Counted from the first letter of the stretch, positions 61,444-64,000 are shown. The stretch is 64,000 nt of DNA from Limisphaerales bacterium (GCA_052139695.1 JBKQWF010000307.1:72297-136296), one strand, 5' to 3'. The notes: a model not told the origin generated them from the letters alone. Program-made: numbers and translations.

Positions 61444-61851
61444 ATGCCAGAGAAATATGCTACATTCGCGCACGAATGGTTTCAAGAAGTGTGGAATCAA
61501 GGCAAGGCGGAAGCGATAGACCGTCTGATGGCCGACGACGCCATCGCGCACGGACTCACGGACAAGAATGGAAAGGAGCTGCGAGGTCCCGCGTCATTCA
61601 AGGAGTTTCATCGGAGTTTTCGCGACGCCTTTCCCGATCTGAAGATTGAGGTGGCGGACACCGTGGCAGCAGGTGACAAACTGGTGGCGCGCTACGTCGT
61701 GCGCGGAACGCACAAGGGTGAAGGATTGGGTTTTAAAGCAACAGGTAAGCCAGCCGAGTTTACCGGAATTTCCATCATTCGTGTCGAGAATGCAAAGATC
61801 GTGGAAGCTTGGAATAGACCCACAGATGAGGTTCGTCGCTTGGGATCATGA
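61444..61851 (+). CDS. SnoaL-like ester cyclase family protein
   Basis: EWFQEVWNQGKAEAIDRLMADDAIAHGL ... FHRSFRDAFPDLKIEVADTVAAGDKLVARYVVRGTHKGE..G..ATGK is the classic SnoaL/ester cyclase pattern. I place the start at MPEKY. Confidence 0.75.
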   Translation: MPEKYATFAHEWFQEVWNQGKAEAIDRLMADDAIAHGLTDKNGKELRGPASFKEFHRSFRDAFPDLKIEVADTVAAGDKLVARYVVRGTHKGEGLGFKATGKPAEFTGISIIRVENAKIVEAWNRPTDEVRRLGS

Positions 61852-62018
61852 AGCCCTTTAAATAGAGCTGCGGCAAAACGTGGTGTCGTCTTTTCGGATT
61901 TGCTCCGCCCGTTTTCATATTCTCTAAGGCGCTAGGACTCGTGCTGGCTGATGGCATTATGATTCAGCTGAGAGTTTGTGTTTTGCTCATATGAAGAGCA
62001 AGGTTCAAGATTGTGACA

Positions 62019-62054
62019 GTGCCCACCGGATGAGTAATCCGACCCGGTGGACAC
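62019..62054 (-). terminator. Hairpin 4 nt downstream of the HNH stop
   Basis: GTGCCCACCGG ... CCGGTGGACAC forms an 11-bp stem with one mismatch and a 14-nt loop. No U tract. Confidence 0.4.
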
Positions 62055-62058
62055 TTAT

Positions 62059-62658
62059 TCACTCGTTGAGGAACAGTTTCCATTCAGCCACAGCGGGTGC
62101 ATTGCGAATGGTAGCCGAGGCCGGCAGCTCCTTCGGTGGGCGTGGAGCGCTGAGCAGTTTCAGGCCGGCTTCGTGCGGCAGGCGGTTGCCCTTGCGGGCG
62201 TTTACGTCCTTGCCGGCCCAAACCAGGTTCTCCCAAGCGTTCTTGCCGCCGCGCGAGCGGGGCAGGACGTGATCTATGCTGCCTTCGTCGGGGCGCAGCA
62301 CACGGCCAGTGTATTGGCAGCGGTTGCCGTCGCGCTCGCGGATGGCGCGGGCGCACAGTTTCGGGCGCTTCTTGGGCACCTTGGCGTAATTGACCGCCAC
62401 AATCACAGTTGGCACGCGGACCGGGCCGCGGACGGTTTGCACTGCATTGTCCTGCGGACGAATAGGCAGCGTGATCCACTCGTCCCAGGCCACGGGACGG
62501 ATGTGGTTTTCGCCTTCGATCTCCAGACCTGTCGCCACGCCCGTCGCCATCATGCAGAAGGCCTCCTGCGGCGTGCGGACGTTGACGGCCTGCCAGTTGC
62601 GGTTAAGCACCAGCACCATCGACTTGTTCAGTATGTCATTCATAAAATGTTTGCGCAT
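62059..62658 (-). CDS. HNH endonuclease family protein
   Basis: The C-terminal HNH core is CQYTGRVLRPDEGSIDHVLPRSRGGKNAWENLVWAGKDVNARKGN. The N-terminal VLVLNRNWQAVNV...VPTVIVAVNY domain is common in short stand-alone HNH proteins. The start is uncertain: ATG at 62658, 62643 or 62712. Confidence 0.8.
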   Translation of the reverse strand: MRKHFMNDILNKSMVLVLNRNWQAVNVRTPQEAFCMMATGVATGLEIEGENHIRPVAWDEWITLPIRPQDNAVQTVRGPVRVPTVIVAVNYAKVPKKRPKLCARAIRERDGNRCQYTGRVLRPDEGSIDHVLPRSRGGKNAWENLVWAGKDVNARKGNRLPHEAGLKLLSAPRPPKELPASATIRNAPAVAEWKLFLNE

Positions 62659-62719
62659 GGCCACCCTGGTTCCTGCGGTGGGGTGTTTGTTCTTTGTTGA
62701 TTCGGATTGCAAACGAAAT

Positions 62720-62794
62720 TGGCTGCCTCGCCCGGTTTTGCTCCAGGTCCTCCGGTGTCAGAGACCGGCGCACTCCTGATTATGCAACGAGGCA
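62720..62794 (-). tRNA. tRNA-like gene, Gln-type, anticodon CUG, non-canonical T loop
   Basis: Hand-folded, 75 nt. Acceptor UGCCUCG/CGAGGCA, G73, encoded CCA. D stem GCAU/GUGC. Anticodon arm CCGGU-CUCUGAC-ACCGG. T arm CCUGG-AGCAAAA-CCGGG. Confidence 0.6.
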
Positions 62795-62795
62795 A

Positions 62796-62869
62796 TGGTC
62801 GCCCGGGAAGGTTCTGCCCCTCCGACTTCTGGGTGTAGGCCAGACGTGATTCTATTTCACCACCGAGCG
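62796..62869 (-). tRNA. tRNA-like gene, Val-type, anticodon UAC, with C33 and a non-canonical T loop
   Basis: Hand-folded, 74 nt. Acceptor CGCUCGG/CCGGGCG, A73, CCA. D stem GUGA/UCAC. Anticodon arm UCUGG-CCUACAC-CCAGA. T arm GGAGG-GGCAGAA-CCUUC. Confidence 0.5.
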
Positions 62870-62874
62870 GAAAT

Positions 62875-62949
62875 TGGCTGCCGGGGCTGGATTCGCACCA
62901 ACATAAGCCCCTCCAAAGGGGGCTGTCCTACGAGTTAGACGACCCGGCA
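62875..62949 (-). tRNA. tRNA-like gene, Gln-type, anticodon UUG, T loop UGCGAAU
   Basis: Hand-folded, 75 nt. Acceptor UGCCGGG/CCCGGCA, G73, CCA. D stem GUCU/GGAC. Anticodon arm GCCCC-CUUUGGA-GGGGC. T arm GUUGG-UGCGAAU-CCAGC. Confidence 0.65.
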
Positions 62950-63001
62950 AAACGGTATCGAGGTGCTAGACGTTACCTGGACCGTCCCGCACATTATTGT
63001 C

Positions 63002-63817
63002 ATGACGCTTCGATTCGAGCGCTACGTCGCGATTGGCGACAGTTCCACCGAGGGGCTCGAAGACCCGGATGGGGCGGGCGGTTACCGTGGCTTGGCGAAC
63101 CGTCTGGCCGAGCACGTGGCGCAAGCGCAGGGCGGGTTGCTCTACGCTAACCTGGGTGTGCGCGGCAAGCGCTCCCGGGAAATCCGCGAGGAGCAACTTG
63201 GACCAGCGCTCGCCATGAAGCCCGACCTCGCGACGGTTTTCGCGGGCTCAAATGACATCCTCGAACGTGGTTTCGATGCTGGCAAGCTGAGGGCGGAACT
63301 TGAGTGCATGATGGGAGCGCTCGTCAGCGGGAAAGCGGTCGTGTTGACCTTCACGCTCCCTGATCTTACCGGCGTTATGCCGATCGGCCGTTTCCTGGCT
63401 CCCCGAGTCCGGGCAATGAATCACGCCATCCGCGAGGCCGCTGCTTCCACCGGCGCCCGCCTCATTGACTTTGCCGCATACTCGGTCGGTTCCGACCCGC
63501 GACTTTGGAGCGAGGACCGCTTCCACGCAAACGCCGAAGGCCACTCCCGGATCGCGGCGGCGCTGGCTCAGGCCCTCGGCCTGCCGCGGACTGATGATGC
63601 CTGGCAGCAGCCACTGCCGGAGGGGAACACACGGAGCCAGCGGACCCGTATAGCCGAAACCTGGTCTTGGTACCGGCACCACTTGCTGGAACGCCTTTGG
63701 TCGGGCAGCAGTGTCGAAGCACAATGTCACCCCAAGCGTCCCCGGCTGAAGGAGGTGCATCTTGGCACGCCCGAAATGGTGGCCCGCCCCGGTAACGCTC
63801 CGGGTTCCACGGCTTAA
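63002..63817 (+). CDS. SGNH/GDSL-family hydrolase
   Basis: Block I YVAIGDSSTEG, block III FAGSNDIL and block V DRFHANAEGH. I place the start at MTLRFERY; the tracked ORF starts at 62963. The last roughly 14 codons overlap a minus-strand tRNA-like gene. Confidence 0.8.
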   Translation: MTLRFERYVAIGDSSTEGLEDPDGAGGYRGLANRLAEHVAQAQGGLLYANLGVRGKRSREIREEQLGPALAMKPDLATVFAGSNDILERGFDAGKLRAELECMMGALVSGKAVVLTFTLPDLTGVMPIGRFLAPRVRAMNHAIREAAASTGARLIDFAAYSVGSDPRLWSEDRFHANAEGHSRIAAALAQALGLPRTDDAWQQPLPEGNTRSQRTRIAETWSWYRHHLLERLWSGSSVEAQCHPKRPRLKEVHLGTPEMVARPGNAPGSTA

Positions 63818-63850
63818 AAGACCGCGGCTTCACTTTAAAGCTTGCAGGCC
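63777..63850 (-). tRNA. tRNA-like gene, Lys-type, anticodon UUU, non-canonical T loop
   Basis: Hand-folded, 74 nt. Acceptor GGCCUGC/GCGGGCC, A73, CCA. D stem GCUU/AAGC. Anticodon loop CUUUUAA. T arm CCCGG-AGCGUUA-CCGGG. Confidence 0.6.
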
Positions 63851-63854
63851 GAAA

Positions 63855-63930
63855 TGGTGCTCGCGGTAGGAATCGCACCTGCACTGGCGACGCTCTCGAC
63901 GTCGTGTCTCTGCTGTTGGACTAAGCGAGC
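63855..63930 (-). tRNA. tRNA-like gene of unclear isotype (loop UCGAGAG, apparent anticodon GAG, short variable arm)
   Basis: Hand-folded, 76 nt. Acceptor has 6 of 7 pairs, A73, CCA. Anticodon arm CGACG-UCGAGAG-CGUCG. T arm GCAGG-UGCGAUU-CCUAC with one mismatch. Confidence 0.45.
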
Positions 63931-63938
63931 AAAGGAAA

Positions 63939-64000
63939 TGGAGCCTCCAGACGGTGATGCTCCGTCTGGATTTCTTTACAAAAGAAATCCGCAGGCTGCT
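63939..64000 (-). tRNA. Partial tRNA-like gene, Thr-type, anticodon UGU (5' part beyond window end)
   Basis: The 3' end is ...GACGG-AGCAUCA-CCGUC-UGGAGGC-U-CCA. The anticodon arm has loop UUUGUAA. It is truncated by the window edge. Confidence 0.45.

Follow-up and report, generated by a model that had tools for sequence, protein, structure and literature searches.

The window analysed here is a 64,000-nucleotide (nt) stretch of DNA from a Limisphaerales bacterium (GCA_052139695.1 JBKQWF010000307.1:72297-136296), and our subject is an array of tRNA genes with a neighbouring HNH nuclease gene, both on the minus strand at the far end of that stretch (62059-64000). An initial annotation, made from the sequence alone, had proposed six close-set units with an encoded CCA, a T loop altered in every one of them, and a likeness to mobile tRNA arrays. 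The minus strand of 62720-64000 was read directly for anticodons, T loops and CCA ends, and the units were located with ARAGORN, with the Rfam tRNA model RF00005 (gathering threshold, 29 bits) and with R1, a covariance model built from 36 units of related loci and run on the whole window. R1 returned exactly six matches in the 64 kb, all on the minus strand, with E values from 2.5e-19 to 9e-4, and the three methods together bear out six units at the positions first proposed for them, five complete and one cut.

The units fall into two blocks. The last unit of the array, nearest the HNH gene, is of tRNA-Gln(CUG) type (62720-62794; R1, 82.1 bits, E 2.5e-19; Rfam, 44.3 bits at 62723-62794); it has the T loop AGCAAAA and a G73-CCA end, and ARAGORN finds it only with a lowered threshold. 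Beside it lies a tRNA-Val(UAC)-type unit (62796-62869; R1, 51.3 bits; Rfam, 41.1 bits at 62799-62869) with C32 and C33, the T loop GGCAGAA and an A73-CCA end, whose orthologs in three related loci (L027, L057 and L070) are identical to it in both T loop and anticodon loop. The block is completed by a tRNA-Gln(UUG)-type unit (62875-62949; ARAGORN at default settings; R1, 78.1 bits; Rfam, 49.5 bits at 62878-62949) that carries U1-A72, G2-C71, G10 and G73, the T loop UGCGAAU, and the D loop AACUCGUA, with C at position 18 and G at position 19. The second block holds a tRNA-Lys(UUU)-type unit (63777-63850; ARAGORN at default settings; R1, 52.6 bits), for which the Rfam tRNA model reported no match in its scan of the array region; it ends in A73-CCA, and its T loop AGCGUUA, combining an A54:U58 swap with G55, is the same in its orthologs. 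The adjoining tRNA-Leu(GAG)-type unit (63855-63930; ARAGORN at default settings; R1, 37.4 bits; Rfam, 27.7 bits at 63858-63930) has a short variable arm, C33, the T loop UGCGAUU, the D loop CAACAGCAGA (A18 G19) and an A73-CCA end, and together with its 28 orthologs in related loci it makes up 29 distinct sequences. The sixth match is the 3’ part of a Thr-type unit with anticodon UGU (63939-64000; R1, 22.9 bits, E 9e-4, model positions 14-75), which has the T loop AGCAUCA, ends in CCA, and loses its 5’ end to the window edge.

The canonical cloverleaf is present, with an acceptor stem of 7 base pairs (bp), a D arm, a 5-bp anticodon stem closing a 7-nt anticodon loop, and a 5-bp T stem. With ARAGORN at default settings two of the five complete units go undetected, as do two (Leu and Lys) with Rfam at its gathering score. 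U33 is kept in four of the six units, Val(UAC) and Leu(GAG) having C33; G55 is found in all six, which are in that respect without the full canonical set of tertiary nucleotides (G18, G19, U54, U55, C56 and A58). These readings agree with the initial annotation on the anticodons (CUG, UAC, UUG, UUU, GAG and UGU), the six T loops, the CCA encoded in every unit, the spacers of 1-8 nt within the two blocks, the two C33 units, and the lack of a long variable arm in the Leu unit. They also confirm the glutamine identity positions U1-A72, G2-C71, G10 and G73 in both Gln units and A73 in the Val and Lys units. The U-rich trailer noticed after the CCA proved to be a feature of the whole family, with T frequencies of 0.74, 0.71 and 0.64 at positions +2 to +4 across 524 units; it fits the leader preferences of RNase P and would suit endonucleolytic 3’ processing. 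The Rfam YrlA model gave no match in the window region at E values up to 10; bacterial YrlA joins a Ro-binding stem to a tRNA-like domain that lacks an anticodon arm, whereas the window units are full cloverleaves with anticodon arms. A promoter and terminator scan of 61500-64000 returned nothing beyond shuffled expectation.

The HNH protein gene (62059-62643, minus strand, with an alternative ATG at 62658) matches Pfam HNH_4/HNH_5, which confirms the proposed HNH open reading frame (ORF) on the array strand. Its product is 194 amino acids long from the MNDILNK start at 62643, a start conserved among homologs. The distance from array to gene had been put at 7-60 nt; the conserved start lies 76 nt from the last unit, and 7 nt applies only to the upstream-most TTG. 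Between the Lys and Gln(UUG) units, the opposite-strand gene that had been said to interrupt the array is indeed an SGNH/GDSL hydrolase gene (63005-63817, plus strand; the mechanical ORF runs from 62963) with a Pfam match to Lipase_GDSL_2 at E 2e-27. The close relative L005 has no gene at this place, its Lys and Gln(UUG) units being separated by about 90 nt, and on a comparison of the loci the hydrolase gene is inserted cargo, not a conserved part of the array. The last ~40 nt of the hydrolase ORF overlap the tRNA-Lys unit in antisense; transcription of the two would therefore be convergent and overlapping.

Conservation of the array and its link to the HNH gene

Relatives of the window HNH protein number more than 5000 in databases, the best 120 of them at 76-92% identity. 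An HNH scan using one genome per species gave 80 loci at 66-91% identity, nearly all in metagenome-assembled genomes of Verrucomicrobiota (Pedosphaera/Limisphaerales-type). Where at least 600 nt of upstream sequence is available, same-strand tRNAs lie upstream of the HNH gene in 71 of 76 loci, so the linkage of tRNA array and HNH gene first remarked on in the window is a conserved one. Several genomes carry two or three copies of the array-HNH pair, and the flanking genes vary between related loci.

As read by ARAGORN, arrays in the relatives end in the order Thr(GGU)-Leu(GAG)-Lys(UUU)-Gln(UUG)-Val(UAC)-Gln(CUG)-HNH, and the window has the same order from Leu(GAG) through to the HNH gene. R1 identified 153 units in seven related loci, all on the HNH strand. 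Arrays such as those of L027 and L057 contain at least 26 same-strand units in about 4.3 kb plus cargo gaps. They cover Gly, Ala, Met, Asp, Pro, Arg, Asn, Ile, Phe, Glu, Thr, His and Cys, as well as Lys, Leu, Gln and Val and many isoacceptors; Ser is represented in L070, and full arrays hold about 30 anticodons. Because the relatives keep the same order in arrays of at least 26 units, the window, judged against them, is the last six units of a normally much longer array.

The pairing of the units was followed through their orthologs. Across 48 orthologs of Gln(UUG), 98% of alignment cells are paired over 22 pairs, and 143 cells have changed on both sides; this signal was reached by none of 500 shuffles, and sliding the 3’ partners by 1-3 columns left 35-47% paired. 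U1-A72, C3-G70, G10 and U33-G36 are invariant among these orthologs, with G2-C71 and G73 nearly so. Leu(CAG) orthologs are 97.9% paired, and in both sets compensatory changes occur in all four stems. Since the stems covary across orthologs, as does the tertiary pair described below, pseudogene decay is excluded for the array family on this comparative evidence.

Some units of the related arrays have unusual combinations of shape and anticodon. Conserved units of 86-92 nt with a long variable arm (the Leu/Ser/Tyr shape) and the anticodon UAU occur at L003 9076-9167, L004 8582-8673 and L027 5405-5496, and the same shape is combined with anticodon UGU or CGU at L010 4666-4752, L021 3904-3991 and L027 4897-4982. 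Long-variable-arm units with Ile(UAU) or Thr anticodons could be charged in an unusual way. At L048 5729-5803, an otherwise intact Gln(UUG) ortholog has UUA for its anticodon and would thereby read the stop codon UAA.

The tRNA elbow across the array family

Few contacts in biology are as conserved as G18-U55 and G19-C56, and the tRNA elbow is read by RNase P, the ribosome, modification enzymes and several toxins. To place the window units in their family, T loops were counted in 564 tRNAs found by ARAGORN in 84 related loci plus the window. The T loop starts with UGC in 345 of these, AGC in 88, UGA in 48, UGG in 37, CGC in 27 and UUC in 13. G55 is present in 547 of the 564 (97%), which bears out the first interpretation of it as a family trait and not random decay, and 541 have a CCA end.

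The state of position 55 is coupled to that of the D loop. D loops of G55 units, for example AACAGCA or AGCAGCNA, have A at the usual G18 site followed by G19. Among the 547 G55 units, GG occurs in the D loop of 7%, and A followed by the complement of nucleotide 56 in 90%; the 15 U55 units of the related loci have GG in 80%. The IMG/VR contig set, which is independent of these loci, behaves in the same manner, with GG in 98% of 227 U55 units versus 11% of 159 G55 units, 99% of the latter showing the A-plus-complement pattern. The earlier statement that most D loops lack G18G19 is better replaced by that of a coupled swap in which A18 takes the place of G18 and G55 that of U55, the G19:C56 pair being kept or covarying.

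Orthologs of a single tRNA species show how the positions move together. Leu(CAG) orthologs occupy three elbow states only (A18 G19/G55 C56; A18 C19/G55 G56; G18 G19/U55 C56), and their 19:56 pair is G:C in 11 cases and C:G in 9, with no mismatches. The 54:58 pair is U:A in 444 units and swapped to A:U in 68. In 150 units aligned to the model, G55 is found in 147, A18 in 105, G53 in 149, and C61 and R57 in all 150; C56 is mostly kept and the CCA is near-invariant, and position 33 is U in 113 and C in 28. Because positions 18 and 55 are coupled, 19:56 covaries, and G53, C61 and R57 are near-invariant, the elbow as it appears in these alignments is kept as a structure and spelled with different letters.

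The tRNAs with UUC T loops are mostly located outside the arrays or on the other strand, and have GG D loops. Examples near arrays are a Gly(CCC) just downstream of the HNH gene in L052, a Met 3 kb downstream in L059, and a Tyr in L083; in L009 and L072 the array’s own G55-type Gly(GCC) has a canonical Gly(GCC) upstream of it. UUC T loops with GG D loops characterize the non-array tRNAs on the contigs of L052, L059, L009, L072, L083 and L016. The stand-alone tRNAs on the contigs of the related loci are canonical, and the G55-type T loop is there a peculiarity of the arrays; the possibility raised in the initial annotation, that housekeeping tRNAs carry it too and it is nothing special, does not hold for this lineage. 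We found no description of an A18/G55 elbow in tRNA arrays or phage tRNAs in the literature searched, the coverage of which was incomplete.

The HNH protein and neighbouring RNA-repair genes

The HNH gene has a median ratio of nonsynonymous to synonymous substitution rates (dN/dS) of 0.14, measured between the window gene and 83 orthologs, and is by this measure under purifying selection. The HNH motif is kept in the window protein (D124-H125, N139 and N148), and its D-H, N and N residues do not vary among 47 diverse homologs from three clades. On the verrucomicrobial branch, three of the four zinc-binding cysteines have been lost (CQYCG to CQYTG; AC..CN to WAGKDVN) and an insertion of about 25 residues has been gained, with the catalytic residues retained. 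AlphaFold, run on the 47-sequence, three-clade alignment, gave a model with a mean predicted confidence (pLDDT) of 83; an earlier model from 15 sequences (pLDDT 33) was discarded. Foldseek comparison of the model with the PDB matched only the HNH domain (Cas9/IscB/Gme type), and the N-terminal ~95 residues had no PDB match.

The initial annotation had offered the array RNAs as possible substrates or guides of the HNH protein, for which we found no evidence. The HNH family also occurs with arrays that have canonical T loops (L089, L087 and L092) and, in Acidobacteria (L090), free of any array, and the protein consists of an HNH domain and a small unmatched N-terminal domain. A guide-RNA role was rejected because RuvC and RNA-binding modules are absent and scores against the IscB/Cas9 families fall far under their cut-offs. 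The acidobacterial homolog is chromosomal and has no array, and no tRNAs lie within 8 kb of the homologs on Acaryochloris and Tsukamurella plasmids; these array-free homologs indicate that the family is not strictly array-bound. A dN/dS of 0.14 and array-free chromosomal homologs are at least as compatible with a cellular function as with a selfish one. The likeliest role of the HNH protein is that of a DNA nuclease by which the array is maintained or spread, as opposed to that of a partner of the RNAs.

Context was assessed by clustering the ORFs of all loci and scanning them against Pfam. RtcB is encoded downstream of the HNH gene in 32 of the 66 loci with at least 3 kb of downstream sequence, and a Ro60/TROVE gene occupies an array gap in 17 of 59; an SPFH protein is found in 20 loci, and RtcA and a HEAT-repeat protein in 7 each. 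The array family is physically linked to RNA-repair genes in these relatives.

Upstream of Ro60 lie two to four YrlA-like matches of 31-43 bits, under the Rfam cut-off of 69, and also a short stretch that matches the models of nematode sbRNA or Deinococcus Y RNA. Such YrlA-/Y-RNA-like matches were recorded by Rfam at L033 377-782 and 1097-1165, L017 904-1154, L040 1151-1282 and 1481-1556, L052 706-853, 1202-1312 and 1426-1498, L048 1272-1352 and 2345-2415, and L004 626-695. With Ro60 they probably constitute a verrucomicrobial Ro60-Y RNA module. Canonical GGUUCRAAUCC T loops and GG D loops are kept in those YrlA-like RNAs that were examined, three in L033.

Candidate roles and variable cargo

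Long tRNA arrays (L-arrays) of up to 43 genes are horizontally spread and encode supernumerary tRNAs (Santamaria-Gomez et al. 2021, PMC8421152), and Verrucomicrobia are among the phyla that possess them (PMC8421152). Their genes run on one strand with short gaps, in numbers well beyond what gene accretion would produce, and their distribution is patchy. In cyanobacterial L-arrays a small HNH gene (all8564) adjoins the array and is co-induced with it by translational stress, and rtcB is linked (PMC8421152). The Anabaena L-array, otherwise silent, is induced by translational stress, and its tRNAs are charged and found on polysomes (PMC8421152). A homing role has been proposed for the array HNH, citing the preference of SegB for cutting tRNA genes (PMC8421152). 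The likeness to mobile tRNA arrays of cyanobacteria and phages that had been pointed out for the window was correct and corresponds to this known arrangement of L-array and HNH gene (PMC8421152); by its gene content, the locus is the downstream end of an L-array with its HNH gene, of a kind already described.

The trn operon of Anabaena sp. PCC 7120 is alike in having dozens of same-strand, close-set tRNA genes, which in the present family, too, would add to a housekeeping set, Leu tRNAs without a long variable arm, a small adjoining HNH gene of the same family, and recurrent rtcB linkage. Over the HNH half, the window protein shares 41% identity (E 2e-20) with the Anabaena-type HNH protein (all8564), which takes part at full length in the 47-sequence alignment. 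The Anabaena array differs in the canonical UUC T loops and GG D loops of 23 of its 24 detected units, and the HNH gene lies upstream of it, whereas in Verrucomicrobiota it lies downstream. Unlike the Anabaena array, verrucomicrobial arrays have Ro60 and Y-RNA-like genes and RtcA embedded in them, and their HNH protein has the insertion and has lost three cysteines. One G55-type unit (UGCAACU), with no GG in its D loop, is present on Anabaena pCC7120delta (L089 3007-3084). We make no claim of common ancestry with the Anabaena or phage array tRNAs, for which pairwise identity is 62-71%, often to another isoacceptor; the likeness to the Anabaena tRNAs is no greater than that between tRNAs in general.

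Phage tRNA arrays, a class to which mycobacteriophage and T4-type tRNA clusters also belong, share a full-length HNH homolog within the array and RtcB nearby (Tunturiibacter phage Tunturi_5 and a phage-like contig; L087 and L092). Relatives of the window HNH protein occur on 40 IMG/VR contigs, and IMG/VR contigs carry such relatives next to arrays. The phage and IMG/VR arrays differ in their mostly canonical elbows, and this includes the IMG/VR arrays with closer HNH relatives. Among putatively viral IMG/VR loci, the A18-G55 type is confined to L094, L127, L129, L130 and L132, which hold 19-37 tRNAs, almost all with G55. In L127, L129, L130 and L132 the HNH protein is 31-45% identical to the window protein and most units have no encoded CCA; a Ro60-like gene is present in L130. 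All five initiator-like tRNA-Met(CAT) genes of these G55-type arrays keep U55 and GG, with canonical copies at L094 2088-2163, L127 4106-4254, and L130 5192-5268 and 12033-12106.

The rsr-yrlBA-rtcBA RNA repair operon of Salmonella encodes Ro60, tRNA-like Y RNAs, RtcB and RtcA. The relatives of the window resemble it in carrying YrlA-/Y-RNA-like genes before Ro60, with RtcB and RtcA on the same strand; they differ from it in that a full tRNA array and an HNH gene are interleaved, and the window has no repair genes. The nearest precedent for the altered elbow is that of the non-proteinogenic tRNA-Gly with which Staphylococcus makes its cell-wall pentaglycine; U18U19 or C18U19 is found in these, U55 and C56 are missing, and they are charged all the same (PMC4574755). 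Those are few isoacceptors of one amino acid, with no evident compensating pair and tied to Fem transferases, whereas the arrays comprise about 30 anticodon species with an ordered A18-G55 swap and 19:56 kept.

On balance, we consider that the arrays probably, though by no means assuredly, keep elongator tRNAs of a different elbow type in reserve, with a link to the repair of damaged RNA and a travelling HNH gene beside them. The array would provide a supernumerary, nearly complete elongator set, transcribed on one strand with its units 1-10 nt apart. Because each unit has its own CCA followed by a U-rich trailer, RNase P cleavage and 3’ trimming would release mature tRNAs without CCA addition. 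These would fold as normal L-shapes, an A18-G55 contact replacing G18-pseudouridine-55 and the stacking pair 19:56 being retained or compensated. They would be charged by host synthetases and form a reserve pool for times when translation or the resident tRNAs are damaged, a role suggested by the stress-induced, charged and polysome-bound tRNAs of the Anabaena array together with the Ro60/Y-RNA, RtcB and RtcA genes of the relatives. The HNH protein would maintain or spread the array. The same change in about 30 tRNA species and in two distant lineages, with initiators and Y-RNA mimics exempt, points to a common pressure on elongator tRNAs behind the elbow change; inheritance from an ancestral array with gene conversion is the simpler alternative.

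Several observations weigh against the reserve-set interpretation. C33, in the Val and Leu units of the window and in 28 of the 150 aligned family units, departs from decoding norms; A54/A58 occurs in Gln(CUG) and G54/G58 in Val, and some Arg units of the family would form C19:A56. The window shows six units only, in an array broken by an opposite-strand gene; the array of the closest relative, L001, is down to two or three units; and RtcB, Ro60 and RtcA are absent from the window, which includes 62 kb on the HNH side. The interruption, the lack of repair genes and the reduced L001 array suggest that the window copy may be eroding, and the hydrolase inserted here and the two or three units left in L001 mean that array copies differ in intactness. 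The existence of the HNH family without arrays makes its role at arrays uncertain. Expression, charging, ribosome use, the role of the HNH protein and the benefit of the elbow are all inferred, and the proposed function is drawn from sequence and from a cyanobacterial array whose own tRNAs have canonical elbows.

A rather unlikely alternative is that the recoded elbow lets the tRNAs escape, or marks them off from, a factor that reads the G18-U55 elbow or the T loop, the array being a damage-resistant adaptor set. Candidate readers are a T-loop-cutting toxin, a defence tRNase, or T-loop modification enzymes; cleavage of tRNAs within the T loop is an activity of CdiA-CT, a toxin of Burkholderia pseudomallei E479. 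Escape of this sort would account for a coupled change in about 30 tRNA species per array and again in a distant lineage (L127, L129, L130 and L132), a uniformity that looks like common selective pressure and not drift, and for the canonical elbows kept by the initiator-like tRNA-Met and YrlA-like RNAs of the same islands. The array-linked RtcB, RtcA and Ro60 handle cleaved or damaged RNA, and PIN, SIR2 and HipA genes and a weak CdiI match occur in and around related arrays. However, neither the window nor the related loci yielded an elbow-directed nuclease or other candidate reader, homologous HNH-linked arrays with canonical elbows exist and evidently work, and an ancestral change that was inherited, with gene conversion within arrays, would also give uniformity. 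Our literature search, incomplete in coverage, found nothing on elbow-based tRNase evasion; known tRNase evasion acts via anticodon-loop mutations (PMC10264068). The earlier idea of evading anticodon nucleases, based on Lys-UUU and Gln-UUG, was too narrow for arrays of about 30 anticodons whose shared change is at the elbow and not in the anticodon loop.

We give still less credence to the units having a role other than decoding, be it as decoys or ligands for Ro60 or the HNH protein, as HNH guides or substrates, or as amino-acid donors like the Staphylococcus tRNA-Gly. The altered elbow recalls those non-proteinogenic tRNAs (U18U19/C18U19, no U55/C56; PMC4574755), C33 is common among the family’s units, Thr or Ile anticodons occur in some units of class-II shape, and the arrays have a tight linkage with Ro60 and with a nuclease gene. 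Against this, about 30 anticodons, including many isoacceptors, are strictly conserved among orthologs, as decoding predicts and a role as donors or decoys does not. The clustered and Pfam-scanned ORFs include no Fem-type, cyclodipeptide-synthase or similar gene linked to the arrays; the HNH family is found with canonical arrays and alone, and has no recognisable RNA- or guide-binding module; and the window units are unmatched by the Rfam YrlA model.

It is very improbable that the T-loop change shields the array DNA from its own HNH protein, imagined as cutting a conserved GGTTCGAATCC box, with the D-loop change as compensation. This idea is modelled on phage T4 SegB, which cuts within tRNA genes. 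It would suit an HNH gene with conserved catalytic residues under purifying selection, the homing role and SegB preference for tRNA genes put forward in PMC8421152, and the alteration, in every unit, of the most conserved DNA motif of tRNA genes. Yet canonical GGTTCRAATCC boxes persist on the HNH contigs (those of YrlA-like genes, of initiator-like tRNA-Met and of housekeeping tRNAs nearby), homologous HNH genes belong to arrays that are canonical throughout, and T loops within one array are diverse (UGCGAAU, AGCGUUA, GGCAGAA and CGCGAUA), with only G55 in common. Equally little weight attaches to a decaying relic (pseudogenes or selfish repeats) or an ordinary tRNA operon of the organism, to which the opposite-strand gene interrupting the window copy, the two or three units of L001 and the poor ARAGORN and Rfam scores of several units might lead: compensation in four stems, tertiary-pair covariation and invariant anticodons across dozens of species contradict pseudogenes, and canonical tRNAs share the contigs (including Gly(GCC) beside a G55-type Gly(GCC)), with two or three array-HNH copies in some genomes.

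Two things stand out from these comparisons: a tertiary contact that is near-universal in tRNAs has been replaced systematically and with covariation, and L-arrays are tied to Ro60/Rtc repair genes. L-arrays, the purpose of which is debated, are physically tied to Ro60/Y-RNA/RtcB/RtcA genes in a second phylum. The hundreds of apparently functional A18-G55 tRNAs, with about 30 anticodons among them, are a natural experiment on the need for the elbow sequence, and they may represent a route by which cells or phages keep translating when the normal tRNA pool is attacked. More speculatively, and with a probability we consider low, these widespread bacterial and phage-borne arrays of orthogonal-looking elongators would be a damage-proof adaptor kit deployed with Rtc/Ro60 repair; the A18-G55 elbow would leave them insensitive to, or recognisable by, a reader of the elbow or T loop, be it a tRNase toxin, an enzyme of tRNA modification, a system of quality control or a sensor on the ribosome. 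The units could also serve as a ready-made scaffold for engineered tRNAs unseen by host elbow-reading factors. Were the swap neutral, it would still be useful for annotation, since general tRNA detectors miss some such genes.

Apart from the repair genes, the cargo in the gaps and flanks of the arrays is variable and includes PIN, SIR2, HipA and a glyoxalase-family gene, and the hydrolase in the window. Around two of the related arrays (L001 1-9000 and 15785-17068; L004 6013-7678) we observed JetD, HipA with a helix-turn-helix (HTH) partner, a reverse transcriptase, PIN and SIR2, with a weak CdiI-like match downstream of the HNH gene. It may be that the arrays lie within variable defence islands. 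The Acido-Lenti-1 RNA motif was matched below threshold (28-35 bits against a cut-off of 37) on the minus strand at L003 12597-12660 and L033 6602-6665; these matches are downstream of the HNH gene and opposite to it in strand, at a distance of about 2 kb in L003 and about 20 nt in L033.

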